64,000 bases of DNA from Giardia intestinalis (GCA_000002435.2 CM018791.1); one strand, 5' to 3'; shown: positions 6,445-59,822, counted from the first letter of the stretch. The notes: generated from the sequence alone by a model not told the origin. Made by a program: numbers and translations.

Positions 6445-8931
6445 CTACCAAGGCTCCCACCTGTGGAGGAAGAAAACCACGTTCGTATATCCATTAAGCC
6501 GCGCATAATCGCTTGCTCTACGGCCCATGGCGTCTTTCATCCCAGCCTCTTTTCCAATCATCAGTCGGACTAGCTCACTGTTTCCACAGCCGGCTGCTAT
6601 CATAAGCGCCGTTCTGCCTCTGTGATCCTGCATCTGTGCTTCTGCTTCATGCAAAATTCCTGCACACTCATAGTATCCCCGTGATACAGCCATCATCAGA
6701 GCGGTAGTTCCTTTCAATGTTGTCTGTCTAGAACCGTGCGGAGCAAGGATCCTTACCATGTTTCTATCATTCCTTAAGGTCATGTACATCAGTGGGGTGA
6801 TACCCGTACTGTCTGCAATATGCCCTTCAAACGGAGAGAGAAAGGCCATAATCTCTGGGTAGTAGTATCGCGTCGCTAGCATCAAAGCTGTCTCTCCCGT
6901 CCTATTCTGCATAGCTGCCTCCTTCTTCGCTAACAATCTGACAATCGAAAAGTTCCCGTGCTGGGCGGCATACATCAGAGCTGTGTACTTGCAGGAATCC
7001 TGGTATCCTGCCTCGTATGGAGCCAGGAATCGCGCGGCAAAAAGCTTATTCTTCCGAGCGGCAACCATAAGTGCTGATTCTCCCGCAGGATTGAGCCTGC
7101 CTGCTTCTAGTGGCGCCAGCACACGAACCAGCGAGGGGTTGTTAACACGTACTGCATACATCAGGGCAGTGTCTCCATGATAATGGCCATAGTCTTTTTC
7201 CTTCTTACCCAGCTTTCTAACCTGTAAAATATTTCCTGTTATTAGCGCCTTAATGTACTTCTTACTATAGCTCTTTGCTCGGTACTCGTTCAAAGGGACG
7301 CTTTTCCGCTTAGAAACAGAGGTCCAAACACTTGGAGGTCTAGAGCATGACTGTGCGCTGAACGTCAAGGCGCCGGGTGGCCCTTCTACTTCCTGCTCTT
7401 CATCTGGGTAACACAGAGATGGTAATATGCCATACTTAGTAAGACCTCTTTCATGAGCGTCTTCTTTGTGGCCGCTCTCAGTAACATCGTGCGACGGGGC
7501 GTCCATTGTGCTAAAGGAAATAGATATATCCTCCTTTTTCCTTATCATCTTGTGATGTCTTTGGGGCTTTTGTCTTTTTCTCTTAGCAGAATACTGTGTT
7601 CTAGACCCTGACAATCTCTGAGTAGGCCATGAAGGCGCTTGTCTGTTTGAAGCAACTCTTGACGCAGGACCCTTTCTTTTTGTCGAACTAAGTTTATGAC
7701 ATCGCCTACGTGGATTAAAAAGGGCTTTGACACGCCTGTAGGTCAGTGCCTTTGATTTTTGAGCCTTTTGTATTAGTTTGGACTTCTTTCCCCCGGGTGC
7801 TTTACCTTGCAAGCGACGAAGATAATTAAACTCGTGCCCATATACAGGGGAGGTGCTGCTCGAGCGCTCTGCCATGGAAGAAAACAGGATTTGATCTGCA
7901 GTGTTCGAGCTGCCATTCCCTGATTCATCAAGAGAACTGTGAGAGTCGGAGCTTTTCTCTGAGAGCAGAGAAGCCGACTCTACAGAAATAGATTTCCAGT
8001 TGGGGTCGTTCAAAGCAGAAACGGCAGGATCAGATTGCTGTATTAGAGTAAGGTCGCATAAATCTGTCAGTTCAGCGGATGGATTAGGAACCTTAGCTGA
8101 TAGGTTCGAATTAGCGAATATGGCAAAATGATTTGTAACTCCAAGGCGTTTGGCTAAGAGAGCAGCAGTATCGCCTTGGTTATCTCGTATATCTTCTTCA
8201 AACTTAACTAGCACGCCTGCCGCATCTTGTGCAGTATACAAAATTGCATACATGAGAGCCGTTCTTCCATATTGATCTTTAGCACTTACCAGGGATTGTA
8301 GGGCTTCTGTAGACAGAAGCTTAATTAAGTGATCACCATAGCCACACTTTATAGCCTCCATCAACCCATTGCTTCCATAGTTATTGCACAGGCACACCTC
8401 TTCCAGCAACATCTCTATCACTTGGGAAGATCCGCCGAGAATAGCATAGATCAGCGCAGTGTCACCTGTATAGTCCCTCCGGCCCAGAAGCCTCGCCTTC
8501 AAATCCAGCACGAACTGCGGTCGTGAGTACCAAGCGGCTTTCATAAGCATGGTTGCTCCCTGTTCATCCAGTACATACTGTTCGTAGTGCAGTAGTATGT
8601 TAAAGAGGGCAGCATTCCCCATCTGGACAGCCCAATGGAGAGCACAATAGCCTCTGTTATCGATGACCCCAGCTTCAACAAAAACAAGCAAAGACGCAAC
8701 GTCGGCATTTCCACTTCTTGTTGCAATGATCAGGGCTGTCTCCCCAGCATCGTTACGTTTTCCAGCATCGTGGTTCAGCAGCAACTTAGCCAGGCCCTCA
8801 GATCCCATCCTGGCCGCAACCATCAGCCCTGTGTTCCCGTTAGCTGCTCGCCAATCATCATACAAGGGGAGGAGGGACTCTATCTTCTTGTAGTTCTTGC
8901 TGTAAATGGCATCAAACCAAGCTCTTTTCAT
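6445..8931 (-). CDS. Ankyrin-repeat protein of the Giardia 21.1 type (828 aa from the first ATG). Ankyrin block, then a basic/Ser-rich linker, then a second ankyrin block
   Basis: Repeated G-(E/N)-T-A-L-M-x-A-A-x-x-G...V..L...E units occur at both ends. The ORF-track start at 8982 is GTG (plus-strand cac at 8980-8982). The first in-frame ATG is at 8929-8931, preceded on the minus strand by the AT-rich tatttatttcaga. The stop TAG lies 3 bp from the stop of the convergent plus-strand gene. Confidence 0.6.
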   Translation of the reverse strand: MKRAWFDAIYSKNYKKIESLLPLYDDWRAANGNTGLMVAARMGSEGLAKLLLNHDAGKRNDAGETALIIATRSGNADVASLLVFVEAGVIDNRGYCALHWAVQMGNAALFNILLHYEQYVLDEQGATMLMKAAWYSRPQFVLDLKARLLGRRDYTGDTALIYAILGGSSQVIEMLLEEVCLCNNYGSNGLMEAIKCGYGDHLIKLLSTEALQSLVSAKDQYGRTALMYAILYTAQDAAGVLVKFEEDIRDNQGDTAALLAKRLGVTNHFAIFANSNLSAKVPNPSAELTDLCDLTLIQQSDPAVSALNDPNWKSISVESASLLSEKSSDSHSSLDESGNGSSNTADQILFSSMAERSSSTSPVYGHEFNYLRRLQGKAPGGKKSKLIQKAQKSKALTYRRVKALFNPRRRCHKLSSTKRKGPASRVASNRQAPSWPTQRLSGSRTQYSAKRKRQKPQRHHKMIRKKEDISISFSTMDAPSHDVTESGHKEDAHERGLTKYGILPSLCYPDEEQEVEGPPGALTFSAQSCSRPPSVWTSVSKRKSVPLNEYRAKSYSKKYIKALITGNILQVRKLGKKEKDYGHYHGDTALMYAVRVNNPSLVRVLAPLEAGRLNPAGESALMVAARKNKLFAARFLAPYEAGYQDSCKYTALMYAAQHGNFSIVRLLAKKEAAMQNRTGETALMLATRYYYPEIMAFLSPFEGHIADSTGITPLMYMTLRNDRNMVRILAPHGSRQTTLKGTTALMMAVSRGYYECAGILHEAEAQMQDHRGRTALMIAAGCGNSELVRLMIGKEAGMKDAMGRRASDYARLNGYTNVVFFLHRWEPW

Positions 8932-9073
8932 TCTGAAATAAATAGGGTCAGCGGTATGTGGAATCCAGGATGTGAGTGGCACTCTGTAAAGATTGACACG
9001 GCTTCTTGACAGAAGATAAACATTGACGGCGTTTAATTGTGTTAGTAATTTGAATTTAGGAGTATAAAATAAA
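8932..9073. promoter_or_regulatory. Bidirectional promoter/initiator region between the 828-aa ankyrin gene (-) and Fe-ADH (+)
   Basis: AT-rich elements abut both ATGs: aaaataaaATG on the plus strand and tatttatttcagaATG on the minus strand. Confidence 0.5.
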
Positions 9074-10313: not shown

Positions 10314-10450
10314 TGAGCATCTGCTGGTCCACCAATCGCTTCTCCTTTCCACTGTACAATGCAGGCTTCTGTCCTACAGGAGATACCCCGAGTTACCACC
10401 AAAGTCTGCCTGCAAAATTAGTCTAAAATTGTTGGGCTTGACTGTTACTA

Positions 10451-12358
10451 ATGAACGACATCTTCACCGTGATCGTTGATAAGCGTCTTATTCAGGCTGT
10501 GGAGTATGTAAAGCATCGTGCTGGCAGTCGGCCGGAGGAGATCTGGAAAAACGTGGCACGGTATATGAACGGACTTACTCCTGAACAATGTAGCGAACGG
10601 TATAATTACCTAGTGACCGAGAAGCAGTATGCACCACTTGACTATCGTCCAAAGGTGCCTATGCCCGACGAAGAGCTTCAAGTGACCATCATCGACGGGG
10701 ACAAGAAGGAGACGATGAGTATTCCCAGGGCCTTGTTAGTCAATAACATGGCCTACTTCAGAAACATCCTGGCTAACAAGGAATCTACTGCGATTGACCT
10801 GTCCATTCATTCGGATATTTGCATTTTCAAGTGGCTCATGGAGCACTGCTACCACCTATACCAGCCCTCTGACTATCCCCCTGTTTCACTGACAATCAGA
10901 ATTGTCTTTCCGGTGTTAGTGTCAGCTCATTTTCTTGGGATGCCCAACCTAGTCAACGATTGTATTCTATTTATGCTCAAGGGATCCAATTTCACACAGA
11001 TTCTTTCGTTCAATTATAATTTCTCCTGCATGGATACAGACTTGCTTAAGCGGTTCCTGGAACACGTCCCCCTGCCTATCTTCATTAGATATCTTGGAGC
11101 TAATCATAGCAATTACCTCATCACAAAGTTAGCAAACGCATCCAGTCACTCGCTCCTGCACAAGTTCTCTGATAAGATTCTGTTCTGCGACCAGTGCGGA
11201 CACTTTTGTCTTCAGGAGATACTAGATTCTTCAACTATCTCTAAGCTCTACCCCAACAGTACTTTTCTCAATTGCGTCAATGGATGCTCTAGGATTGATA
11301 GTAGGGGACGGATGACTAGCAACCACAACTTTCGCGTTTGCAAGAAACTCAGCAAAACGATTCAAAAGCACCTAGCCGACATTAAGATATACCCTAAGTT
11401 GACCAGCGTGCACATTTATTGGGCCCTATTTGGCCTATTATTCTGGTGTACATGTGCCAAATGCGAGCAGGTGTTTCCTCTTCAGGATCTCTGTAAGTGT
11501 GAGGCAAGCGGCGGTCAGCACACCAATCATGAGATTGACAAGGTTATTGTTGCCCCAGCAGATACGGATCTTAGATTAACCATCAAAGAAGACCTGTTTG
11601 ATCTCAATAAGAATATCTGGAACAATCTCTCTATTAAGTCTAAGCTTCTTAACATTCTAGATGTCCCCGTTATTCATAACATGATCACGCTAGGGCCTGC
11701 GTGTGGTAATTTTTCAGCAGTTTCGGTAGCTAGGTCTGGGCAAGAATCCAGCACTGCCCCACGAAAGAAAGCTAACATTCCCATTCACGCTGCTGTATCA
11801 GAGGACTCTGTATCAGAAGAGCAGACTCCAGCCGTTAATTTACACACGCCAACACAAGCGAGACCCAGGCAGGAACTTTCAACAAGGAGTACTGTCGATA
11901 CCAAGACAAGAAGGTTAAGCTTTCAGTTGAGGGCACAAAAAGGAGCCGTACAGGAGCCTAATGTTGTCAAACCTAGAGCTCAGCAGTCCGAGCCGCCCCT
12001 AAAGGCACCAGATCCAGACCTATCTTCTGACAGTCAAGATTCCAATGACTGCAGTGAGTTACAAACTCGAATATTTACCCATACAGCAGACGATGACGCA
12101 GTTGGGGTTAAAGGCAAGGCTACAGCAAAGGGGCTTCCCGAGAGATGCAAGCGTTATCTGAAGTTAAAAAGTAGCATGACTGACGAGCAGCGCAAAACAG
12201 TCCTCAATGGCATTGCACACGAAGAAGATGTTTCTAAACTGCGAGCACTGAATTCAGTCTTGATTACTGCCAGAGAAAATGACATAATCAAAAAGGCCCG
12301 CTACGCCTTCGAGAGCATTCCGTTTCCCACATATAATCTCCAGTCACGCGGGAAGTGA
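10451..12358 (+). CDS. Hypothetical protein (635 aa) with an N-terminal Myb/SANT-like segment and a BTB/POZ-like segment, followed by a Ser/Pro-rich region
   Basis: EEIWKNVARYMNGLTPEQCSERYNYL resembles a Myb/SANT helix-turn-helix. VTIIDGDKKETMSIPRALLVNNMAYFRNIL...IDLSIHSDICIFKWLMEHCY resembles the BTB core. Both calls are by eye only. Confidence 0.45.
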   Translation: MNDIFTVIVDKRLIQAVEYVKHRAGSRPEEIWKNVARYMNGLTPEQCSERYNYLVTEKQYAPLDYRPKVPMPDEELQVTIIDGDKKETMSIPRALLVNNMAYFRNILANKESTAIDLSIHSDICIFKWLMEHCYHLYQPSDYPPVSLTIRIVFPVLVSAHFLGMPNLVNDCILFMLKGSNFTQILSFNYNFSCMDTDLLKRFLEHVPLPIFIRYLGANHSNYLITKLANASSHSLLHKFSDKILFCDQCGHFCLQEILDSSTISKLYPNSTFLNCVNGCSRIDSRGRMTSNHNFRVCKKLSKTIQKHLADIKIYPKLTSVHIYWALFGLLFWCTCAKCEQVFPLQDLCKCEASGGQHTNHEIDKVIVAPADTDLRLTIKEDLFDLNKNIWNNLSIKSKLLNILDVPVIHNMITLGPACGNFSAVSVARSGQESSTAPRKKANIPIHAAVSEDSVSEEQTPAVNLHTPTQARPRQELSTRSTVDTKTRRLSFQLRAQKGAVQEPNVVKPRAQQSEPPLKAPDPDLSSDSQDSNDCSELQTRIFTHTADDDAVGVKGKATAKGLPERCKRYLKLKSSMTDEQRKTVLNGIAHEEDVSKLRALNSVLITARENDIIKKARYAFESIPFPTYNLQSRGK

Positions 12359-12378
12359 CACGCATCACCATGTAAAGT

Positions 12379-13350
12379 TTACTCATCTTCATCTGTAGCG
12401 CCGCCCTGATCTTCTGCTTCACGCTTACTTGCTTTAGCTCTTCGTTCTCGATTACGAGGCTTCCCTGTCCCTGTTTCAGGCTTTGTCTCTGACTTATGAT
12501 AGCAATGACCAGTTCCCGCTATTAAGCAACGGTTGCACTCGGGGAAGCTTGCCTTGCAGACGGTTTGTCCAAAGCCGACAAGCAGATGGTTAATATCTCG
12601 CCACTTGTCCTTTGGCAAGGTCTCGACTAGCTGCTTGGCCACATCATCTGGATTTAGCATCTTCCCGTTAGGCTCACACATTCCTTTTTCGACCCATCTC
12701 AGCCTCTGCGCTATGCGGCACACGTGCGTATCCACTGCTATTCCCTCGACTTGGCCATAGACGATCTGAACCAACAAGTGCCCCATTTTTGGTCCAAAGC
12801 CGGGGAGCTTTAGAATACCCGCGAGGTCCTTGGGAATATCGCCCCCATAGTTGTCTAGGCATATCTGAGCAACGTTCTTCATGTACTCTGCCTTTCTTCG
12901 ACAGAAGCCCACTGGATGGATTATCCTCCCCAACTCATCTAGTCCAGAGTCCACCACGTTCTTCGCTGTCAGCCTCCACGCATCAAGCTTCATTAGGTTG
13001 TCAATATCGATAGGAAAGTTCTTCTTGAGCATGGCTTCTGCTTTGGTGGACTTCTGCAGCCCCTTCGTCTTTTCTTCAAACTCTGCCTCGAGCTTCTTTA
13101 AACGCTCTTTGTCAAGGCCGTCAGGGGGCACTGGAAGCATATGATTAAGTTTGTACATGGCGGCAGCGGTTACTCTATCCAGATTTCTGGCAGACAGGAG
13201 AAGGCCTATGGCAAAGCGGAAGCGACCATCTGGAGTTTCTGTTGTATCCGAGAGCATGTGCGCCCCGAATACATCGACGGGGCAGACATACTCTGCCCGC
13301 ATTGTCTCTATTTTCTCCCATGTATCCTCAAGATCCGGGATCGGAGCCAT
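12379..13350 (-). CDS. NTH1: Endonuclease III (Nth) homologue, HhH-GPD DNA glycosylase with a [4Fe-4S] cluster loop
   Basis: HhH-GPD elements LPGFGPKMGHLL and VDTHVCRIAQRL (catalytic Asp). C-terminal CKASFPECNRCLIAGTGHC Cys ladder. ATG confirmed (cat at 13348-13350) with AT-rich upstream on the minus strand. Confidence 0.8.
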   Translation of the reverse strand: MAPIPDLEDTWEKIETMRAEYVCPVDVFGAHMLSDTTETPDGRFRFAIGLLLSARNLDRVTAAAMYKLNHMLPVPPDGLDKERLKKLEAEFEEKTKGLQKSTKAEAMLKKNFPIDIDNLMKLDAWRLTAKNVVDSGLDELGRIIHPVGFCRRKAEYMKNVAQICLDNYGGDIPKDLAGILKLPGFGPKMGHLLVQIVYGQVEGIAVDTHVCRIAQRLRWVEKGMCEPNGKMLNPDDVAKQLVETLPKDKWRDINHLLVGFGQTVCKASFPECNRCLIAGTGHCYHKSETKPETGTGKPRNRERRAKASKREAEDQGGATDEDE

Positions 13351-13371
13351 TTAATTGTAGTATTTTTTGAA
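13351..13371. promoter_or_regulatory. 21-bp AT-rich bidirectional initiator between Nth (-) and the NTase gene (+)
   Basis: The sequence is ttaattgtagtattttttgaa, flanked by a start codon on each strand. Confidence 0.5.
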
Positions 13372-15327
13372 ATGAACGATTCTTCTCACGAAGCCCTTTG
13401 TCCAGAGTGCCGCGGACGGTATGGCTTCTCGTCGCTGGCAACACACCTATGTTTGGAACATGGGTTTTGTCCTTTTTGTCCCTCTGAAAAGTACATCACA
13501 GAAGATTTGTATCCTGAGTTAATTTGCACACGGAAAGAGCTGGTGGGTCGGCTAGCCCAGGTCTATCGGAAGGTAGCCAGTGACCTTCTTGCGCCACGGG
13601 AGACTGGCTTTTCTCTTGAAGCCTGTAGCTCAATCTATTCGACATATATAGCGTCGTTCTCTCTCCTACGCAAATTTCCTTACGGCCTTTCACCTCCTGT
13701 TGCAATGCTTGTGCATCTTATCATTGAGCATCCAGCAGTAGGATATAGGTTATTGTGCTCATTGAGTGGTGCTGAATCCCTGACAGCAATTTATGCCCTT
13801 GCTTCTTACAGCGAGCTGGTGCCACAAGAAGATGCTCAACTTTGTCCTGATTGCTTTCTCTTTTACACTGACCCAGCCAATCACCACAGTCAGTGTAAGA
13901 GATACTATAGATATCATTTTAAGCATCACCTTCACTATCAGGGCTGTCTAACAGATTGCTTAGCAGGCTCCATGTCATCTGCATATGCGTCAGCTAGGAC
14001 GATCATTGGCCAGTACTTTTGTCCAGAGAGTTTAAAGAACAATCTACACTGTGCTCGATACTATATGAATCTATATGCACCAGTTAGCTCTACTACAGCC
14101 AAGAGTGTGGAGGACAGCCTACGGGGCTATCTTACCCGCTACCCCGTATTCACATCCCTTAGTTACCCAGACAAGGCATACAAAGTCAAGTCTTTCGAGC
14201 TCCAGGGCTCGTACGCTTTTGGCAAGGCCACCATTTACTCAGATATAGACTTTCACCTCGTTATTCTAAAGCTTGAGGGTGTGGAAATGAATGACTTGAC
14301 TTCTGAGGACACAAAAGACTGCTTGTCCTCTCTGATCAGGCACCTACAGGCACCCTCGGCAGGTGAGTGGCTGAGCCAGTTCTCGATGGATAAACCAATT
14401 AAGTATTGCAGGGGTACTACAGGGTTCATAGAGTTTTCACTTAAGAATGCAACGCAATCTGTTAGCCTAGTATTTGGCAGCCAACACCATCTATCTGCTG
14501 GACGGCGGCGACTTGCAATTATGCGGTCCTTTTATCTCGACAAGCTCGCCATCTATGAACGTGCAGAGGGGTTCCTAAAGCAGTGGTTGTTTATGAGTAG
14601 GACAACCGAGGGTAGCACTGCAATGGGCCTCACAAAGTTTGCATCACTGACCATCTTGCAGCGCGTGTGCCTTTTTACTGATGCTGGCAGTCTTCTCCGG
14701 CGGTTCATTTGCTATGATTCAAGTGAAACCTACGAGGCCATGCTAGATCCGCCTTCTGTTGACAGTGTAACTTTTAGCGAGTCGCTGACTCTTTATCAAT
14801 ACGACTATAATGTACGCGGCATAGAAAAAACTATTAACCTTGCTGGATTGCATCCAAACCCCGAGTTAGTTGATCCAGCAAAATTCAAACAACTAGCGAT
14901 TGACCACTGTGCTGACAATAGATCAAAACGTGATATTCTTGACGCCATATTGCAGTTAGCAGATACTCCTGAGGAGATCTCGTTCATCTGGGCCTTTACT
15001 CTCATCCACGAGGTATTGCGCTACCACCGAGACTTCTATCAGCAGACACTTAGATGTAAGTTGAGCTCCGATCAAGAAATGTCAACAACGAATGTTCTGT
15101 ACAGTCTGCGTGATTTATTGAGCATCTCTAATGACTTGGAGCCCATTTCCACGGAAACGCGTACGTGTGTATCTGCACACGTGACAAAAACCATGACATT
15201 AGCCTGTGCATTTAGAATACTCTTAACCGTGGAAACAAGCATGCTGTTTTTGCGATACTTTCTACCCACCCCTCCGCACTGCAGCACAGCAGATCGCGAA
15301 GTTCTTCATAAACTCATTGCAATCTAA
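13372..15327 (+). CDS. Cid1/Gld2-type (Pol-beta-like) nucleotidyltransferase candidate with an N-terminal C2H2-like zinc finger (651 aa from the ATG at 13372)
   Basis: CPEC-x12-HLCLEH is a C2H2 pattern at 13399-13465. GSYAFGKATIYSDIDFHLVIL at 14206-14256 matches the NTase hG[GS]x9SDxD signature (compare Cid1 GSLESGLALKNSDMDL). The ORF-track start at 13141 overlaps the Nth gene by 210 bp. The in-frame ATG at 13372 has a classic AT-rich initiator (gtagtattttttgaaATGaac) and removes the overlap. Confidence 0.55.
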   Translation: MNDSSHEALCPECRGRYGFSSLATHLCLEHGFCPFCPSEKYITEDLYPELICTRKELVGRLAQVYRKVASDLLAPRETGFSLEACSSIYSTYIASFSLLRKFPYGLSPPVAMLVHLIIEHPAVGYRLLCSLSGAESLTAIYALASYSELVPQEDAQLCPDCFLFYTDPANHHSQCKRYYRYHFKHHLHYQGCLTDCLAGSMSSAYASARTIIGQYFCPESLKNNLHCARYYMNLYAPVSSTTAKSVEDSLRGYLTRYPVFTSLSYPDKAYKVKSFELQGSYAFGKATIYSDIDFHLVILKLEGVEMNDLTSEDTKDCLSSLIRHLQAPSAGEWLSQFSMDKPIKYCRGTTGFIEFSLKNATQSVSLVFGSQHHLSAGRRRLAIMRSFYLDKLAIYERAEGFLKQWLFMSRTTEGSTAMGLTKFASLTILQRVCLFTDAGSLLRRFICYDSSETYEAMLDPPSVDSVTFSESLTLYQYDYNVRGIEKTINLAGLHPNPELVDPAKFKQLAIDHCADNRSKRDILDAILQLADTPEEISFIWAFTLIHEVLRYHRDFYQQTLRCKLSSDQEMSTTNVLYSLRDLLSISNDLEPISTETRTCVSAHVTKTMTLACAFRILLTVETSMLFLRYFLPTPPHCSTADREVLHKLIAI

Positions 15328-15328
15328 G

Positions 15329-18300
15329 CTAAATAAATCTTACCCCAAAGAAAGGATTATGCTCTAGCCATTCCTCGCTACTGATGCTTGTTTTGTTGGG
15401 CAAGTAGACTACGGGCTGGATGCGTCCTCCTATTTTGATAGGTACGGGGACCATGTTGGCAGGAACCCGTAGATACGTGTGCCTGTGGCTGCCCGCTATT
15501 GATGTCTGTCTGGTTGTTGTGTTGTTGGTAACTACGCAGTAGGCGTACAGCTCTAAGCAGTTATTATATCCATGCGCTCTTTCGACAGTGTCAGCGCAGA
15601 CAGTTTCTAACACGGCGTCATATGATATCCTGAAGAGCTCAAGATTTCTGAGAACCACGTAGAAAGGACATTGATTTTGGCGGTCTGTGCCCTTGGTCTC
15701 AGTGTCTATGGTGCCATCCTCACGAATCTGCGGCATGTAGCTGGGCTTTTTAATGCTTACGACAATCCTTTGCCTGTTAATGGGGGTCGATGTAAGGACA
15801 GCCGAGTGCATTCGAACAAAGTTGAGTATGTCTCCGAGAATCGGGCCATATGTGCTAACGTTGATGATCCAGTGCGTGGGGAATGAACCAAATCCTACGT
15901 TCCCATCGACAGTGAACATATCTGGAAGACCCACGTTAGGGATAATGTGCTTAAGGATGTACATAGACGAAAGGTTCCTGCTAGGAGATCCGAACGGGAT
16001 ACGCTTGAAGTCCTCGTGTGCCATAACATAGGTCCTTAGGGCAGATGTCATTTTGCTGAGGTCCGTCTTACGGGCAGCATTGACTATTTTCATGGTAGAC
16101 GGAAAGTTTGGGTTAACAACTGTAGAAAGCGTGTTCAGCGTCGTGTTTGACGAGAAAAGGTGACGATAGTAGAACTCCTGAGGAAGGCTGTGTTGGGCAG
16201 CAGAAACCAGATATCTCTTCTGTCGTGAGATTTGCAGGTCACTGGTTTCCTCAGTGCTGTAAGCGTATAAGCGTAGTTGTTGTACAAGGTCCAGTAAGTC
16301 AGAAATGTCATTATAAAACGGAAGAATGTCCAGCCATTCCGTAAATTTTCCTGCACGAGTCGTCCCAGAAGCGCGTTCTGCGGCAAGATTTGGAATGGTA
16401 ACGGTGTTAAGAGAGCGGTGCTCAATCTCTACCAGTTTGCGGACAGTTCCTTCTATTTTCTTAGTGTCGATGGGGCGTTCATCAGTAAGGTCTCCAGCGG
16501 CAATTTGAATTGTGACCAGCAAGTTTTCATAGATATCGTCCTCTTCACACCGAGCAGCCGACTGTACCCCTTGATTGTTGCGCAGAATGCTGGTTCCCCG
16601 AGAGCGAGTAGTAATACTAGACCCTCGTGAGGATAAGTTGTCACTTCCAGCTATAGACTCCCCATCGTCAAAACCGACAAAGTCTCCCTCTCGACCGTCT
16701 CCGTCCATTCCAGTAAGCTGCGTTGAGGCCTTACTGCTTTCTAGCGAAAGGGTAGACTCTGTAATGGAAGTGCTCGAGGAGAGCTCATCTTCCTCGCTGT
16801 CAGAACTTCCTGCAAGGCGCAACTTCTTCTTCGCTGCCTTTTGTGCTTTTGCGCGCATAGTTTCCTTCAGTAGTCGCATGACAACCTCATCATGTACCTG
16901 TTGCTCGGAGACAACCAGCCTGGTTGGTATTATCTTTGATAAGGCCTCAAGCTGGCCAAAGTTGAGACTGTAAATTACTTTCGCGACGCGCTTATATTGT
17001 TTGGAGTCTACTCGATTCATGAGGATTGCACTGTTGTCTCTCAAGAGCGTGAGATTGACGAATGCGCAGCTCTTGAAGGACGTTTTGTCATACTTTTGCA
17101 CTTGCTTGGTTACAGCCCGCAATAGCACCTTTTTGAGCTTGTAAAAGAGCCTTGTATCGTCCATAAATATAGTAGATTGATAACTCAAGAACGAGTGCTT
17201 TAGAGCCAAAAGAACAATCCCACGCATAGTTATAGGGGGCTGGAAGTTTGGAACAGCTTCCAAGTCTATCACTTTAAAGCAAATCATAATGAGCAACGTG
17301 ATGCCGACCATACAAAGATTGAGATAGTGAACAAATGCCTTGCTCAGTGTGCCAGGATGCTGTATGTAGATGTAGTTTGGAACAGTCAGGATTGATATCT
17401 CATATAAAAGACTAGTGAAGTGTTCTGAGTCGAGATGAGTCAGTGCTGGTGAGCTGCTGTGGTTTGCGTTCAGGGCGGAGGGAAACAGAGAAGAAGATGG
17501 TACGAAGATGAAAATAGGGTATGTGATGTCGTATTTTCGTATACTCAGCTTCTGTCTCAAGATGTTGATGACATCTTGGAGCAGAGCCGCCCCACCTAGA
17601 GCAGGGTCTGCCACGGCAACGGTGATTGATTCTATTATATCTTGGAAGGAAAGGTGCTTAGCAAAGTTAGCCCGTACGGTTCTATACGGGTTACTTGGAA
17701 GCAGGTGGATAAACGTGAAGACATGGTCAATGGAGATGATTTTGTCAAAGAATATCAGAGTGACCTGTATGGGCGACGGCCCCATGGCCATGATGTGCTG
17801 CATCTTCTTGTCCTTTAGAATTTGCGGATCGGCATCAATCTCCTGCACCTTGGCATTATATCGCTCAAGGACCCTAAACGAGAAAGTATACGCATCGTAA
17901 AGCTGCATGACGCAATCTGATGCTAAGTCGGGTGGCATCTCTATGTCCTTTCCGACGCTTGTCTTTGTAGGGAGTCCAACAAATGTGAGCAGGTTCCGGA
18001 ACGATAGGCCCATGGCTTGCAGATATGTCTGGACTAACTCCCCGCGCTCTGCAGCCGATGATATCTTCATATCACTTCTGAAATGGCCAGTTAGCCCTTT
18101 TGGTGCGTTAACCGACATCGTCGCAGAAAGCTGCCAAGCGCTGGGTCCACAACGCTTTTCCAGCATCACAGCCATCGCTTCAAAGGTGTCAATGATGAGC
18201 TCAGGCTTCAAGGCATTGGACAGGGAGAAGATAGCAAAGAAGGATTGGCTGTCCTGCTTAGCTAGCATAGGCGGCAGTTTGAACACCTGGTAATTAGATG

Positions 18301-41096: not shown

Positions 41097-44000
41097 ATGG
41101 TTCAAATCTTATCGACTCCTTGTAAAAGTTACAAAAAAGAAGGAGTCCGCGCTATGAATTTCTCCGTTAGTACCAAGAAAGAGTGGTTTGCAAGTATCCT
41201 CGCGCATCGCTATGAGACTGTGCGCGCTTCCATGAAGAAGTTCAGCAAGTCCACAGACGTGGATGGGGAAACTGGGCTCATGTTGGCCACTCGCAACAGC
41301 GATATGGAAATGATCCGGATTCTCATGCCCGTTGAGGCGAAGCTCACCAATAAGGATGGGCTGACCGCATTAATGATTGCTGCGATGCTTGATAACAAGG
41401 ATACGTGTGAAGTCCTTGCAAAGGTGGAGAGTGACGTCATCCTCAAGGATGGCCAGAATGCACTTATGATCGCGGCTGCTAATGGCTCTCTTTCCGCTAC
41501 CAAAATGCTCCTGCGCCACATACAGTACGTTACAGACGATCTGGGGTGGACGGCTCTTGACCACGCAGCAAACGGAGGACATCTCAAGTGCGTGCAACTG
41601 CTTGTTGCAGAAGTCCCGTCCCTTACTGTTAGCGACTTCGAGAACGCTATCTCTGTGGCCTATGACAAGGGCCATTCGCATGTCGTCGATTACCTAGCGT
41701 CTATGATTTACCAGGCAGAAAAGGACACATATGGTGATGATAGTATGACTACTGGCAGCCCGTCCGGACAGACAAGGTCGCGCTCTTCCAGCAAAAGTCA
41801 CAAGAAGAACTCGCTAGAACAAGAAAATAAATCGCTCAAACAGATGAATGCCAAGCTGAATGAAGAGGTCGAAAGGCTGCGAGCTACAGACAAGCGGCGG
41901 CTACGCGAAACACCAAACGATGCTGAGCTGGAGGCAAGAATTCAGGAACTGGAGCGCGAAAACGATATGCTGCGCCAGACAATCCAAAAGAGAGACACTG
42001 GCAATAGCTCTAAGCATGGCGACAACTTGGACGCTAAGTATGACGATCTTTGGCATCAGAAAGAGAAGCTTGAGCAGGAGCTAGAGCACACTCGCAGAAA
42101 TCTGGAGGAGGCAAAGTCAGCTTACAATCGTGTCGATGATACGGAGGTCACGGCCCTCCGAGCTGAGCTGATAGAAGCTAGGGAAATTCAGGAGCAGCGA
42201 ACGCAGACGATCTCAACACTAAACAGGCAGATCGATGACATGCGAAGAGAGCTAGATTATTTGCGTGGAGACAACAAAGCCACGCGTGGAGATGCAGAGA
42301 ACATGGCCACCAGCGCGTCCCAGTTGGCAGGAGAGCTTCAGGACGCTCGTCATGAAATAGACAGACTGAATACCACAATCACCGAGCTCAGACAAGCTGG
42401 GAATCGCAATCCATACGATTCGAATATGGCTGTCCTTCAGCAAGGCCACGCCCAGATGCAGGACATTCAGGCCGAGAACAGAGCGCTGAAGCAGGAGCTT
42501 GACTACTATAGAAACATGCAAGCCAATCAGCCACCGTATCCTGGCTTGGCAGCACAGTCCTCGATGACACACTCTTTTAGGGACTACACTTCACAAGAAA
42601 AGGTAGACCTTAACGGCCCACATGTAATAAGATCAAAGCAGGATCCAGAGAGGGAGCGGACGCTCGACCTACTTCGGTTAGAAAATGCAGATCTGCGTGA
42701 GGTCATAAGGATGCGCGTGAACCCTGTAGCCTTAGACACTGACCCAGAGTCCATTGATGGGAAAATACTTCGGTTAGATAAGCTTAGGGTCGAGAATGAT
42801 CTTCTTAGGCACGAAATCCTGCTTAAGCACTCAATTCTTACCCTCAACATGGAGAAGGATCTTCAGACCATCCGAGCAGAAAATGTTCTTCTGCGCGACG
42901 CGCTTCGGTCCCGCACCTCTACATATGTCCCTCAGGATCTTATTGACCAACTCACTCGACAGAATGACATTATTGCAGCGGAGAACATAGAATATAGGCG
43001 TGCCATTGGCCAAGCAGCTTCTGTGCACCAGCCGTCATACCAAGACGGATATTCGCCTACTCTCAACCCCACTCTGCATGGAAATGGCGGATCCATACCA
43101 CCAGCAGTTATCCAGGAGATAGAGTCTCTGCGGCAGGAGAATCAGACACTCAAGCATCAACTGGCGACTGCACAGCTTGCCCCTTCGGTAGAAACTTTAC
43201 ATAGCACGCAACTTGTACAGCCCAACCACCCACCACTTGAGCTTCAGCGCGAGCTGGATAGACTCACAAATGAGAATATCGATTTGCGCTCCACAATTCA
43301 TCGTCTTCAGAGCAATCAGAATCAACCCCTTGGTAACTCAGTGTCAGACGCAACAGAGATCAGCATGCTGCGCTCAGAAAATGCTAGCCTCAGAGAGGCC
43401 ATGCGCACTCAGGTGCATGACACTAGCACAGGACTGCTTCACAGCCTCACTACAGAGATTGAGACGTTAAAGCAGGAAAACATTATGCTCAAGAATGCCC
43501 TTCATAACCAGCCACCTCCACCACAGCCCCAATCTGTCATCACTAATGTTGTTCCTCCGGAGACCACCTACGAGCTTGAAAGACTCAGAAACGAAAATGT
43601 GACACTCAAAGTTGAGCTAGATAAAACGCGCGCTAGCCTAATGACAGAGATAAACTCCCGTACTATGCAGAGCCAGGCCTCCTCCCAGCATCTTTTAACC
43701 GAGCTGGACACATACAAAGCGCAGATTCAGCGTCTTGAGCGCGAGAATGAACTACTCAGGTCCCTTCCACCTCAAAACATGGGCATGATGGGGACAAACG
43801 GGCCCATGCAAATCGTTATTCCAGGCCTTACACCAAATCGCGAGAACGTTAAGCGGGACGCTGATGGAAACACCAACCTTATCCGTGCTGTTAAAAATAA
43901 CAACATGGACCTTGTTCGCCGATTCTGGCCTGTCGAAGCTGGAGTCCAAAATAACAGAGGCGAATCTGCTCTGATGACCGCAATAGAAATGAACAACACA

Positions 44001-45470
44001 GACGCAGCCCTAATGCTTGTTGAAAGGGAGTCCGGGCTTCAGGATGCGACGGGCCGCTCGGCGCTCATGTGTGCCGCTGAACGGGATAATTACGAGGTTG
44101 CAGTCGAGCTTGCGCAACATGAGCAGGGCTTGAAAATGCCAGATGGTACAACTGCACTCATGATAGCAGCATCCAAGAACCATGTGCGGATCTGCAAGCT
44201 ACTTTCGGAGCAAGAGGGTCAGATGCGGAACACAGAGGGCAACACGGCTCTGCACATTGCTGCAAATCTTGATCACGCAGAAGCATGCGCAGTACTTGTG
44301 GAGCATGCAGGGCTCATTAAGGACAAGGCGGGCCATCTTGCCCTTCACAATGCGTGCATCAGAGGGAATAAGAACGCAGCCCGCGCTCTCTATCGCAAAG
44401 AGAATGGCTTCCATCAGTTTGATGGTTGGACTCCGTTGATGGGTGCAGCGGCCATTGATGACATGACAGAGCTTCGGTTCTATCTTGAGAACTACGTCGG
44501 AATGAAGGACAAGGATGGCATGACTGCGCTCATGTATGCTGCGGTTTGCAACAATCCCAATGCCATTCTGCAGCTCTTGGAGAGGGAATCAGGAATGCGC
44601 ACTAACAAGGGCTACACCGCGCTCATGCTTGCAGCTGAGAAAAATAACGTCAATGCGGTGCAGGTCCTCATGCCCAAGGAGGCTACAATTATGAACAACG
44701 AACGGGAAACGGCCCTGATGATCGCATCTCGGGCAGGTGCCACAGAGTCTGCACGCATCCTGGTGCCCACAGAGGGTGGCATCCGCATGCTGGATGGAAC
44801 GTCCGCACTTAGACTCGCGCTCGATTACAACAACCAAGAACTAGCCCGGTTCTTAGCAGAGCGAGAAGGGATTGCTGTGGGCCAACTCACGCGTGACTTC
44901 CACGGCCGAACAGATCTCATGCGCGCCGCAGAAGAGGGAGACGCCGTATCGGTTTACTGTCTGTTGCCAAGTCAGGGCGGACTTGTTGATGTCGACGGGA
45001 AGACGGCGCTCATGTACGCCTGCGAGCGTGGGCATGTTCAGTGTGCAAGGCTGCTCAAGGAGAAGGAAGCAAGGATGCGCCGGACGATGCGCGACTCATG
45101 GGAGGGTCAGACGGCGCTTATGTTTGCAGCGCAGGCAGGAAGTGTGGAGATCGTAGACCTGCTAATCGACGTTGAGGGAGGCTGCTCTTGCGCCAACGGA
45201 TGGACTGCTCTGATGAGCGCAGCCAGATTCAACAAGGTGGCATGTGTTGAGGCGCTCCTGGACCGCGAGGCGCGCATGCAGACAAATGAGCGGTTCGCTG
45301 CTGGGGCAGGATACACGGCCCTTATGGCTGCCGCAGAATGGTCGTTCATTAAGTGTGTGCGCGCACTGCTTCCTCGCGAGCATGATATCAGGCACTCCAG
45401 CGGAAAGACCGCGATAGACTTTGCGAAGACGAGCACCATCCTCGAGTGCATCAACAACTACCGTCCTTAG
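41097..45470 (+). CDS. Ankyrin, long coiled coil, ankyrin protein (1457 aa), Giardia 21.1-like
   Basis: TALM-type ankyrin repeats occur at both ends. The roughly 650-aa central coiled coil has more than 10 copies of L(R/K)xENxxL(R/K)xxL. The start is uncertain. ATG 41097 is in a GC-rich context. An in-frame ATG at 41153 has an A-rich tract (acaaaaaagaagg) upstream. Confidence 0.6.
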   Translation: MVQILSTPCKSYKKEGVRAMNFSVSTKKEWFASILAHRYETVRASMKKFSKSTDVDGETGLMLATRNSDMEMIRILMPVEAKLTNKDGLTALMIAAMLDNKDTCEVLAKVESDVILKDGQNALMIAAANGSLSATKMLLRHIQYVTDDLGWTALDHAANGGHLKCVQLLVAEVPSLTVSDFENAISVAYDKGHSHVVDYLASMIYQAEKDTYGDDSMTTGSPSGQTRSRSSSKSHKKNSLEQENKSLKQMNAKLNEEVERLRATDKRRLRETPNDAELEARIQELERENDMLRQTIQKRDTGNSSKHGDNLDAKYDDLWHQKEKLEQELEHTRRNLEEAKSAYNRVDDTEVTALRAELIEAREIQEQRTQTISTLNRQIDDMRRELDYLRGDNKATRGDAENMATSASQLAGELQDARHEIDRLNTTITELRQAGNRNPYDSNMAVLQQGHAQMQDIQAENRALKQELDYYRNMQANQPPYPGLAAQSSMTHSFRDYTSQEKVDLNGPHVIRSKQDPERERTLDLLRLENADLREVIRMRVNPVALDTDPESIDGKILRLDKLRVENDLLRHEILLKHSILTLNMEKDLQTIRAENVLLRDALRSRTSTYVPQDLIDQLTRQNDIIAAENIEYRRAIGQAASVHQPSYQDGYSPTLNPTLHGNGGSIPPAVIQEIESLRQENQTLKHQLATAQLAPSVETLHSTQLVQPNHPPLELQRELDRLTNENIDLRSTIHRLQSNQNQPLGNSVSDATEISMLRSENASLREAMRTQVHDTSTGLLHSLTTEIETLKQENIMLKNALHNQPPPPQPQSVITNVVPPETTYELERLRNENVTLKVELDKTRASLMTEINSRTMQSQASSQHLLTELDTYKAQIQRLERENELLRSLPPQNMGMMGTNGPMQIVIPGLTPNRENVKRDADGNTNLIRAVKNNNMDLVRRFWPVEAGVQNNRGESALMTAIEMNNTDAALMLVERESGLQDATGRSALMCAAERDNYEVAVELAQHEQGLKMPDGTTALMIAASKNHVRICKLLSEQEGQMRNTEGNTALHIAANLDHAEACAVLVEHAGLIKDKAGHLALHNACIRGNKNAARALYRKENGFHQFDGWTPLMGAAAIDDMTELRFYLENYVGMKDKDGMTALMYAAVCNNPNAILQLLERESGMRTNKGYTALMLAAEKNNVNAVQVLMPKEATIMNNERETALMIASRAGATESARILVPTEGGIRMLDGTSALRLALDYNNQELARFLAEREGIAVGQLTRDFHGRTDLMRAAEEGDAVSVYCLLPSQGGLVDVDGKTALMYACERGHVQCARLLKEKEARMRRTMRDSWEGQTALMFAAQAGSVEIVDLLIDVEGGCSCANGWTALMSAARFNKVACVEALLDREARMQTNERFAAGAGYTALMAAAEWSFIKCVRALLPREHDIRHSSGKTAIDFAKTSTILECINNYRP

Positions 45471-45542: not shown

Positions 45543-45953
45543 TTAGCAAACTCCGCACATGGCCAGCGAGCCGATTATGATGACGCAGATAGCACACACT
45601 ACAAGTACAACAAAAGCGACGTGAGTGAACCAGGTTTCTACTGGCATACTGGAGGACCAATTCTCATACCAAGGCTGCGCCAGGCCCCACCAAAGCATCA
45701 TGGCACCGCGGAAAAGGTGGTGGGCGATAAAGCCAGACCAGGAGTTCTCGATGAAGGAGTCCCCAAAGCCCGTCCCGAAATCAGAGATGAGAGTGATGAC
45801 CATCCAGAAGAGGAGGGCAAGCTGGTAGACGTGATTCCCGACATGGTCGGTGCCCAGCAGCATCTTAGTGAGCATACCAATGCCGCCTGCAGCAGCCCCA
45901 ACGACCGTGAACCACTTCGCAGTCTCACCCGCGCAACCGGACGCCTTAGTCAT
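45543..45953 (-). CDS. Small 4-TM membrane protein (136 aa), paralogue of the next gene
   Basis: Four hydrophobic helices by eye. ATG confirmed with a very AT-rich upstream (aaatttaaaaaatactg...ATG). Similar to the downstream 137-aa ORF (KWFTVVGAAAGG versus KWISVGSCTAGA; LALLFWMVITLISDFG versus LVLSMWLVLMGLADFS). Confidence 0.55.
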   Translation of the reverse strand: MTKASGCAGETAKWFTVVGAAAGGIGMLTKMLLGTDHVGNHVYQLALLFWMVITLISDFGTGFGDSFIENSWSGFIAHHLFRGAMMLWWGLAQPWYENWSSSMPVETWFTHVAFVVLVVCAICVIIIGSLAMCGVC

Positions 45954-46068: not shown

Positions 46069-46482
46069 TCAGGCGCAAAAGTGAAGAGCTATTCCCAAAA
46101 TCATGACCAAGGCTCCTCCCGTGAGTAAGATGATCCAAAGCACCTTTGTGAGAATGAAAAGTGTTGTAACAGATGCTAAAAGCTGCGTCCAGGTAGTGTA
46201 GCAAGGGAGCATAAGCGAGATTATGATCATACAAGCGCCCCGCTTTACGGGCATTCTTCCTGTCTCTGAGATATACTTAGCATTGAGCGTGTTTGCCGGC
46301 TCCAAACTGAAATCCGCAAGACCCATGAGGACAAGCCACATGGATAAGACTAAGTGTAGCAGAAAGTCGCCCACATATGAGCCCTGGAAAAGAAGAGACG
46401 CAGATGCAAGAGCCCCTGCTGTGCAGGAACCAACGCTGATCCACTTGATCACGCTTGAGAGGACATCTGTGCGATCAGCCAT
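46069..46482 (-). CDS. Small 4-TM membrane protein (137 aa from the internal ATG), tandem paralogue of 45543-45953
   Basis: The ORF-track N-terminal extension (to 46689) overlaps the divergent 491-aa gene. The ATG at 46480-46482 (cat on the plus strand) has an AT-rich upstream (attttaaagcagattttggg) and yields a protein the size of its paralogue. Confidence 0.5.
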   Translation of the reverse strand: MADRTDVLSSVIKWISVGSCTAGALASASLLFQGSYVGDFLLHLVLSMWLVLMGLADFSLEPANTLNAKYISETGRMPVKRGACMIIISLMLPCYTTWTQLLASVTTLFILTKVLWIILLTGGALVMILGIALHFCA

Positions 46483-46553
46483 TGAGCGGTGGCCCAAAAT
46501 CTGCTTTAAAATTACATCGAAGCTAGGCGAAAAGTCTGGACAGTCTGAGTGGC

Positions 46554-48029
46554 ATGACAAATGCGTACATGGGGGCGACAGACATAGAGAGCACCGCTCT
46601 GCAGGAGCGATGTTCAACTCTGCAGAAGGAAAACTATGAGTTGAGACAGCGGGTCTTTTCTCTTGAGAAGAAACTTGCAGACACGTCAAACAGCCTTAAA
46701 GATGAGTGTGCACGCGAGAGGGCCCGGTACAGAGCTCTAGAGGCGAAGATGGATGAATTTCAGCTTACAACAGAAAGGCATGCTACAAAGCGTGTTGAGG
46801 ACCTTATGCTTGAATGTAGGGATTTAAAGGCCAACTTATCACGAGAGCGGGACCGCACAAAAGCAATGGAGCAGGAGCTCGATGCCCTGTCCAGCTATGC
46901 CAGCGAACGGATCAACCTTTCTCGCCGCCTGGAAATAGCAGAGTCTCGAGTGTCAGACCTAGAAACTCTCCTCGATGTAGATCGAAAGCAGTTCCTTGCA
47001 GAGGCGGCAGAGCAGCGGGCAATGCTCGAAAGCAGGCACCGTGCAGAGGTCCAGGCTGCCGTTGAGGAAGCAATCCGGGCCACCAATGAGAACATTTCCA
47101 CCGAAACGCGCCTCCTCAGAGACCAGAACCAAATCTTGCAGAAGTCAGTTCTTATTTTGAAGGGTTCGGGCGGCAATACAGGTACGAGGCGGGTTCCCAC
47201 AATCAGCAGGATGGAGTCAGAGCTTCCTGGTACCAGCGTGAGCCGCTCACGAACGACCTCTCAGCTCTCCATGGCCAAGGCATCTGTCTCCGGGCATATA
47301 AACTGCGACGAAATAGAAAAGTTTGAAATGGACATCAGCAGAGGTTTAGAAATGAGGATAGGAGAACTCAAAATGACTGTCAAGCATCTTCAAGCAAAAC
47401 TCGAAGAGCAGGCGTCCGATTTTAAGCGGGAGAAAAACGAGGCTAGTGAGTTTATCGCCAATCTCATCTCGAAGTTCAACAAGGAACGTGCAGATCTCCT
47501 CTTCGAAATAAAGTCTCTCGAAAAGCTCGTCTATGCTAAGTGCAAAGAACTCTACAAGCTGCGGACTTTGGCGCAAATGCTTCTTCAGCGCAGGACTGAT
47601 CTGGAAGCGTTTTTATCTAAGCTCTTGGCTGCAACCCTCGACCTGGAGACGAGGGCTATCAGCCCCTACACGATGGCTGAGTACTTTGACGTTGAAATGG
47701 GCCGCCGGCGGTCCTGGTCGCCGTCTCCACCACCAGATTACCGATACACTAGCGGTGCCATCCCCCGAAGCATTTCCTCGGGTTCCGCTCCTGCAGCAGG
47801 AGCGGGGACTTGTCGGGAACTTGCCGCCATCATGACCCGGACTAACCTGAATTCAAACGAGGCTCTCTCCTCCATCACACCGAAGATGCCGCGCACCATG
47901 GCAGAAATGGAGCGCTCTCTAAATACTGCTATCCGAGTGCGCTCTGATCCACTGATAAATTCATTGAGTTCACAAGAGGTTGCTAATATTGTACGCGACT
48001 GGATTACGAAAATAGACATCCCCCTCTAG
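46554..48029 (+). CDS. Coiled-coil protein, 491 aa
   Basis: Heptad-rich throughout (LQKENYELRQRVFSLEKKL, LETLLDVDRKQFLAEAAEQ). An alternative in-frame ATG lies at 46569. The stop is 10 bp from the stop of the convergent 3147-aa gene. Confidence 0.55.
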   Translation: MTNAYMGATDIESTALQERCSTLQKENYELRQRVFSLEKKLADTSNSLKDECARERARYRALEAKMDEFQLTTERHATKRVEDLMLECRDLKANLSRERDRTKAMEQELDALSSYASERINLSRRLEIAESRVSDLETLLDVDRKQFLAEAAEQRAMLESRHRAEVQAAVEEAIRATNENISTETRLLRDQNQILQKSVLILKGSGGNTGTRRVPTISRMESELPGTSVSRSRTTSQLSMAKASVSGHINCDEIEKFEMDISRGLEMRIGELKMTVKHLQAKLEEQASDFKREKNEASEFIANLISKFNKERADLLFEIKSLEKLVYAKCKELYKLRTLAQMLLQRRTDLEAFLSKLLAATLDLETRAISPYTMAEYFDVEMGRRRSWSPSPPPDYRYTSGAIPRSISSGSAPAAGAGTCRELAAIMTRTNLNSNEALSSITPKMPRTMAEMERSLNTAIRVRSDPLINSLSSQEVANIVRDWITKIDIPL

Positions 48030-59740: not shown

Positions 59741-59822
59741 CAGAATCAATTTCCTTTTTCGGAATCATGCACTGACGATGACGGGCCCGAAAAGCCTTAT
59801 TTACACATACACAGGAGATAAG

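Follow-up and report, generated by a model that had tools for sequence, protein, structure and literature searches.

The endonuclease III gene (Nth) and the hypothetical gene GL50803_17094 of Giardia intestinalis lie head-to-head across an AT-rich spacer of 21 bp, with Nth translated from the ATG at 13350 on the minus strand, GL50803_17094 from the ATG at 13372 on the plus strand, and both mRNAs, to judge from the sequence, probably starting inside the spacer. The 728-aa open reading frame (ORF) that appears to overlap Nth is best explained as the product of calling the longest ORF. That this overlap is an ORF-calling artefact, as the original prediction had claimed, is strongly supported, and the matter has already been resolved in the public annotation; translation from 13372 agrees with the comparative data, with the initiator motif scores, and with the re-annotation of the protein from 728 to 651 aa.

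Positions are those of the window, meaning the whole 64,000-nt stretch of DNA that was analysed, the proteins of which were identical to those of G. intestinalis WB (ATCC 50803) in an exact-sequence look-up. The ORF list contains an ATG-initiated plus-strand ORF of 728 aa (13141..15327) and, on the minus strand, the 323-aa Nth coding sequence (12379..13350, ATG 13350-13348), which have 210 bp in common (13141-13350). The next in-frame ATG of the plus strand is at 13372, 77 codons 3' of 13141, and the 651-aa reading frame starting there (13372..15327) is that of the hypothetical protein GL50803_17094, as established by its orthologues and by an exact match to XP_001705758.2 / KAE8303287.1. The spurious N-terminal extension of 77 codons (13141..13371, plus strand) therefore consists of 210 nt antisense to codons 1-70 of Nth and the 21-bp spacer between both ATGs (13351..13371; ttaattgtagtattttttgaa / TTAATTGTAGTATTTTTTGAA), an AT-rich sequence that would contain the divergent core promoters. 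Both ORFs, the 210-bp overlap, the ATG at 13372 and the 21-bp gap had been placed correctly to the base in the original prediction.

The minus-strand ORF is a true endonuclease III of the HhH-GPD superfamily. It matches XP_001705761.1, named 'Endonuclease III' by NCBI, exactly and the Pfam family HhH-GPD (PF00730) with E=1.6e-12 (48.1 bits, against a cutoff of 26.2), and it has 819 homologues with E<=1e-20, the named ones among the matches listed being endonuclease III or endonuclease III-like. Its N-terminus is kept from Met1 in six lineages of the G. intestinalis complex and three more distant relatives, and the period-3 substitution pattern of the gene extends up to the ATG at 13350.

The comparison of the junction covered WB and the orthologous loci from five other lineages: an A2-like isolate (L005, 97% amino-acid identity), isolate P15 of assemblage E (L001), isolate GS of assemblage B (L004), and the more divergent L006 and L007, in which the GL50803_17094 protein is 62% and 58% identical. 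The head-to-head arrangement of Nth (minus) and GL50803_17094 (plus), followed by a giant-ORF gene (minus), is found in 5/5 of these other lineages, and a BTB/Myb gene (plus) lies upstream of Nth in 4/5, the L006 contig stopping within Nth. Each of the six lineages retains the two ATGs, and the five GL50803_17094 orthologues, of 645-664 aa, all begin at the homologous ATG. The spacer measures 21, 21, 21, 20, 22 and 22 bp across the six lineages; as its length varies between 20 and 22 bp, the plus-strand frame upstream of 13372 is not preserved.

Substitutions within the 210-nt overlap were distributed as expected of Nth. Across the six lineages, 8/70, 2/70 and 53/70 columns are variable at the first, second and third codon positions of Nth, respectively, these third positions being the first positions of the plus-strand frame. 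Hence the Nth reading frame retains an identity of 94-99%, compared with an amino-acid identity of 50-73% in the plus frame, which is moreover interrupted by stops within the overlap in P15, GS, L006 and L007 (4/5 other lineages). The third-position variation, the identities of the two frames, and the plus-frame stops together indicate that selection acts on Nth only: purifying selection was not found in both frames, nor are both kept open in relatives. The ATG at 13141 is replaced by GTG in three lineages, the codon immediately 5' of the GL50803_17094 ATG is TGA or TAA in GS, L006 and L007, and the upstream frame of P15, open over 58 codons, contains no ATG. A true sense/antisense pair of overlapping genes is accordingly contradicted by the plus-frame stops, the GTG at 13141 and the Nth-only pattern of substitution.

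The 728-aa protein might nevertheless be real in assemblage A, with a start near 13130 and an extension overprinted antisense to Nth, and several observations would accommodate it. Firstly, the frame is open and has its ATG in both assemblage-A genomes, WB and the A2-like isolate, although their overlaps are 99.5% identical, and hence uninformative. Secondly, the protein was the original GenBank/RefSeq model (XP_001705758.1, from 2007). Thirdly, antisense transcripts are so numerous in Giardia that some plus-strand RNA probably spans the region (PMC1885649). Against these stand the stops or loss of the ATG in all non-A lineages, and a substitution pattern that is wholly that of Nth. The context of 13141 also lacks an initiator: it is not AT-rich (6/15 AT), and no initiator motif precedes it, the best score being -12.9 under a crude PWM based on the 17 TSS-seq consensus variants that Tolba et al. 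2013 list as the most frequent (PMC3792122, Table 3). Curators, for their part, dropped the extension on the basis of RNA-seq, orthologues and start motifs, such that the current RefSeq annotation, XP_001705758.2, has 651 aa. A genuine 728-aa product is therefore highly improbable. Peptide sequences specific to the extension, which include FVHGGSGYSIQISGR, AEATIWSFCCIR and SHLIVVFFEMNDSSHEALCPECR, define what such a product would contain. The original prediction had also expected no plus-strand 5' ends upstream of 13350, which is too strict as a refuting condition, because AT-rich patches in Giardia commonly give rise to sterile antisense transcripts (PMC1885649).

The open frame itself has a simple explanation. 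The extension reads the antisense strand of Nth in codon-aligned register, such that a stop can only arise in it opposite TTA, CTA or TCA in Nth. The three codons account for 3.7% of all those in the genes of the window, and none occurs among the first 83 codons of WB Nth. The probability of 77-90 open codons in such a frame is 3-5%, which counts against a coding extension, and 37 open runs of this kind, each at least 83 codons long, are present in the window. The stops found in other assemblages correspond to synonymous leucine changes in Nth. The 77 upstream codons are open by chance only, with a 21-bp spacer that happens to keep the frame. A genome of approximately 5000 genes should contain false extensions of this kind by the hundred, which agrees with the 626 start codons moved by Xu et al. 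2020 on the basis of orthologues, RNA-seq and an A-rich start motif (PMC7000408). GL50803_17094 is one of the models corrected in that revision.

More distant Giardia were considered as a further comparison for the junction, and were set aside because L008 and L009 do not have Nth and GL50803_17094 head-to-head; they inform only on the start of Nth and the AATTAA sequence that precedes it. In L008, a Giardia-like contig (positions 1-820) encoding an Nth 74% identical to that of WB, the giant-ORF gene has the same strand as Nth and ends 98 bp upstream of it, and GL50803_17094 is absent between this 7100-aa gene and Nth. In L009 (230-1260, Nth 50% identical), the BTB/Myb gene is directly upstream of Nth, with an 18-bp gap. 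These gene orders imply that the Nth/GL50803_17094 junction is specific to the G. intestinalis complex, with GL50803_17094 either inserted at the junction, or lost or moved elsewhere in the distant lineages.

Compact arrangements are also seen at the other ends of these genes. The BTB/Myb gene and Nth converge with only 20 bp between their stops (12356-12381), and that of Nth lies within GAGTAAAC, where an AGTAAA hexamer resembling a poly(A) signal overlaps the stop. The stops of GL50803_17094 (TAA, 15325-15327) and the 7100-aa gene (TAG, 15331-15329) are separated by 1 bp, and in isolate GS the two genes as called overlap by 39 nt.

The spacer is conserved well beyond the level of synonymous sites. 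Aligned across the six lineages, 14/22 of its columns are invariant, compared with 28/168 synonymous third positions of Nth (Fisher p=8e-6), which are themselves near saturation; the spacer is therefore clearly constrained. The invariant positions are TTAATT (13351-13356), A13359, TATTTT (13361-13366) and A13371, the base preceding the ATG, and the variable or indel-bearing columns sit just 5' of the GL50803_17094 ATG. At the other end of Nth, the convergent 20-bp spacer has 8/26 columns invariant. Upstream of the BTB/Myb gene, the corresponding figure for the 50 nt before its start is 26/55, concentrated in an AT-rich block. This block, AAAATTAGTCTAAAATT (10415-10432, plus strand), lies 20-36 nt upstream of the BTB/Myb ATG at 10451, is conserved in five lineages, and is probably the initiator of that gene, which would imply a leader of about 25 nt. 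An Rfam search of 12000-16000 found no RNA family, such that the spacer does not belong to any known RNA gene, and a scan for bacterial promoters and terminators, irrelevant to a eukaryote, returned nothing useful.

Divergent ATGs and a constrained spacer thus characterise the locus in all six lineages, and AT-rich elements of the TSS consensus precede the ATG by no more than about 20 nt in both directions, although not at 13141. For GL50803_17094, the initiator-like sequence is TTTTTGAAATG (13364..13374, plus strand), which scores 5.3 bits, lies in the top 0.08% of 11-mers in the window, and has a score attained by only 2% of random 30-nt stretches; it predicts a start at about 13369 and a leader of 3 nt. 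For Nth there are two candidates. The first is adjacent to its ATG, where the TTAATT block (13351..13356; AATTAA|ATG as read on the minus strand), invariant in the six lineages, is a candidate proximal initiator or start context. The match here, CAATTAAATGG (minus strand), reaches 2.3 bits, which places it among the top 0.2% of 11-mers in the window, with a predicted start at 13352-13353 and a leader of 2-3 nt, and TTAATT may possibly serve as an upstream AT-rich element for GL50803_17094 as well. The second is ATTTCAAAAAA (13373-13363, minus strand), by far the best-scoring initiator match of the region at 12.8 bits, which is placed, unexpectedly, at the end of the spacer away from Nth and extends into the complement of the GL50803_17094 ATG; it predicts a start at about 13368 and an 18-nt leader.

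Crude as it is, the PWM is informative: approximately 10/15 gene starts in the window have a top-0.13% 11-mer match at most 30 nt upstream, and only 2-6% of random 30-nt stretches attain comparable scores. It does not, however, pair elements with genes consistently across lineages, as the best plus-strand matches in L006 and L007 are at the Nth-proximal end of the spacer.

Two arrangements of initiators within the spacer were weighed. Under the one slightly favoured, the conserved AT-rich blocks TTAATT and TATTTT(TTGAA) would each be the initiator of the adjacent gene, with predicted starts about 16 bp apart, and each may double as an upstream element for the opposite gene, following the published model in which Inr and TATA roles are interchangeable. 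Leaders would be approximately 3 nt for GL50803_17094, and either 2-3 nt or approximately 18 nt for Nth. As Giardia ribosomes begin translation at the first AUG where leaders are very short, the position at which transcription starts would fix the ATG that is used. Invariance of TTAATT and its retention in L008 favour this arrangement: the AATTAATTAAATACC|ATG context upstream of Nth persists in this contig, where GL50803_17094 is not the neighbour, which suggests that the AATTAA block belongs to Nth. It is weakened by the spacing of the two blocks, which are about 10-15 bp apart, compared with the published Inr/TATA spacing of about 30 bp.

The alternative is that one quasi-symmetric T-run/A-run initiator at 13362-13373 (ATTTTTTGAAAT on the plus strand, ATTTCAAAAAAT on the minus) serves both genes through back-to-back starts at about 13369 (plus) and 13368 (minus), with an 18-nt Nth leader containing the whole spacer, and with TTAATT kept as the translation-start context of Nth rather than as an initiator. 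Its attraction is that ATTTCAAAAAA is identical to one of the published variants of the TSS consensus (PMC3792122), is the top 11-mer of the region, and occurs once in the window, where 0.02 copies would be expected, and that the starts predicted on the two strands fall on adjacent nucleotides. The element also scores well in assemblages A, E and B (6.1 bits in P15 and 9.6 bits in GS), in which a shared initiator has the better motif score. However, its A-run is broken in L006 and L007 (TAACCAAAATA, 1.4 bits), yet these lineages keep the gene order and both ATGs; the least conserved, indel-prone columns of the spacer fall inside the element; and the invariance of TTAATT, together with AATTAA in an L008 locus without GL50803_17094, fits a proximal element of Nth's own. 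A shared initiator is thus possible, if doubtful.

More tentative still is the fullest form of this proposal, for which confidence is low: that the 20-22-bp spacer is a complete, selectively maintained bidirectional Pol II promoter, in which a single quasi-palindromic T-run/A-run element of about 12 bp would launch both mRNAs (from 13368 on the minus strand and 13369 on the plus), the Nth-directed initiator overlapping the opposite start codon. Were this the case, the spacer would rank with the smallest bidirectional Pol II promoters found in nature that serve two protein-coding genes.

Promoters might instead exceed the spacer, with necessary AT-rich or CAAT-like elements located within the first 30-70 coding nt of the other gene. 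In published core promoters, a second AT-rich element is indeed located some 30 bp upstream, joined in certain cases by a CAAT-like one at about 50 bp (PMC1885649), and an AT-rich patch, TATTTTC (13310-13316), lies about 55-62 nt upstream of the GL50803_17094 ATG with two adjacent invariant synonymous positions. Yet the sequence about 30 nt upstream is GC-rich on both sides, the only TSS-seq motif within 150 nt of starts is the initiator (PMC3792122), and the flanking coding sequences have no excess of invariant synonymous sites, which number 3/13 in Nth codons 1-20 and 2/17 in GL50803_17094 codons 1-40, against 17% gene-wide. It is possible that degenerate AT-rich elements, or those at non-synonymous positions, would escape such a comparison. 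Promoters extending into the neighbouring coding sequences are consequently considered unlikely.

The preferred reading remains that of two genes with initiators inside the spacer. The conservation of the spacer in length and sequence, and the presence of motifs in both directions, make the proposal in the original prediction, that two divergent promoters are compressed into 21 bp, a plausible one. The accompanying statement, that the locus shows how little sequence Giardia needs for bidirectional initiation, overstates the sequence evidence, although conservation makes it a reasonable hypothesis. Transcript 5' ends had also been expected at most about 10 nt from either ATG; for Nth this may not hold, and the model would not thereby be refuted, as the strongest Nth-directed match is 18 nt from the Nth ATG, making an 18-nt leader possible.

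Starts assigned mechanically look over-extended at other ORFs in the window, at 6445-8982 (minus), 57560-59749 (minus) and 41097-45470 (plus). The ATGs at 8931 (ATTTCAGAATG) and 59707 (ATAAGAAAATG) have good initiator motifs, unlike the GTG/TTG starts of the ORFs, and in the gene at 41097 the motif preceding the second ATG (41154) is better than that preceding the first. The top initiator match of the window, AATTTAAAATG (16.4 bits), is upstream of a hydrophobic 136-aa ORF (45543-45953, minus), with a second match, AATTTAAAAAA, 24 nt further upstream; this ORF is likely to be a real gene for a small membrane protein, and the neighbouring 206-aa minus-strand ORF (46069-46689) is of similar character.

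The GL50803_17094 protein may itself be a divergent terminal nucleotidyltransferase-like protein, resembling TUTases or non-canonical poly(A) polymerases. Residues 232-480 (14065-14811, plus strand) include a G-S...D-x-D motif, GSYAFGKATIYSDIDF, that is invariant in the six orthologues, the pattern looked for in Pol-beta-type nucleotidyltransferases being G[SG]-x(9-13)-D-x-D. The match to Pfam NTP_transf_2 (PF01909) scores 16.3 bits, below the cutoff of 21, and there is a weak PDB profile match to 4ebj, an aminoglycoside nucleotidyltransferase (E=0.1-0.3). A structure model of the full-length protein was too poor for use (pLDDT 40); that of the domain has an alpha/beta core (pLDDT 61 overall, 70-89 in the core), for which ranks 1-35 of the 50 Foldseek matches shown are all Pol-beta-type NTases (Utp22, OAS1, TUT7, GLD-2 and Cid1), with weak values (E=2e-3 to 0.1, TM ~0.3). 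The N-terminus has a zinc-finger-like CPEC...H...H motif. An exhaustive profile search for relatives outside Giardia found none save a 6455-aa protein, P0142 (E=2.7e-7), with five matched stretches to residues 493-539 (about 14848-14988).

The locus is an ordinary instance of two facts that are already published, namely mis-assigned starts and short AT-rich bidirectional promoters, and adds nothing beyond existing work on the Giardia initiator and bidirectional transcription; it is not listed in the supplements of PMC3792122, and literature matches to the gene number 17094 are unrelated numbers, such as PubMed ids. It illustrates that longest-ORF calling in Giardia yields false sense/antisense overlaps, which orthologues and the AT-rich start motif resolve. 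It is also a clean, conserved example of tight promoter packing that could be a natural minimal test piece for bidirectional initiation. The start error is the same as those of the 2007 WB annotation fixed by Xu, Jex and Svard (Sci Data 2020, PMC7000408), in which a longest-ORF start overlaps a real neighbour, with the same correction; GL50803_17094 is an instance of these without difference, and the paper does not discuss the gene individually. The extension likewise shares its cause with other shadow (antisense) ORFs, in which stops depend on the rare sense codons TTA, CTA and TCA. It differs from the usual ones in joining a real downstream gene in frame, and so came to resemble an N-terminal extension.

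The proposed promoter is similarly familiar. An AT-rich consensus spans the Giardia TSS and is the only motif found around mapped starts, neighbouring genes placed head-to-head can share a start nucleotide or use initiators that overlap (Tolba et al., Fig. 6), and leaders are mostly shorter than 20 nt, down to 1 nt (PMC3792122). Promoters are inherently bidirectional, with interchangeable AT-rich elements (Teodorovic et al. 2007, PMC1885649). The Nth/GL50803_17094 spacer has in common with these systems its AT-rich elements of about 10 bp by the ATG, very short leaders, two-way motifs, and blocks able to swap Inr and upstream roles (PMC1885649, PMC3792122). It differs from them in having real genes on both sides, a total intergenic length of 21 bp, and blocks about 10-15 rather than about 30 bp apart, with starts that are predicted. 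WB intergenic regions have an overall median of 81 bp (PMC7641422), roughly 129-142 bp separate the genes of the two remaining divergent pairs of the window, and 30 bp is quoted as the typical lower end for Giardia (PMC1885649); hence 21 bp is short, yet within the range described for this genome. A further parallel is the head-to-head ran/phd pair of Giardia, described by Tai and colleagues as cited in PMC1885649, in which one short region likewise serves two divergent genes. Compared with the 153-bp intergenic region given for ran/phd in that citation, the spacer between Nth and GL50803_17094 is seven times shorter, with a promoter that is predicted from sequence.
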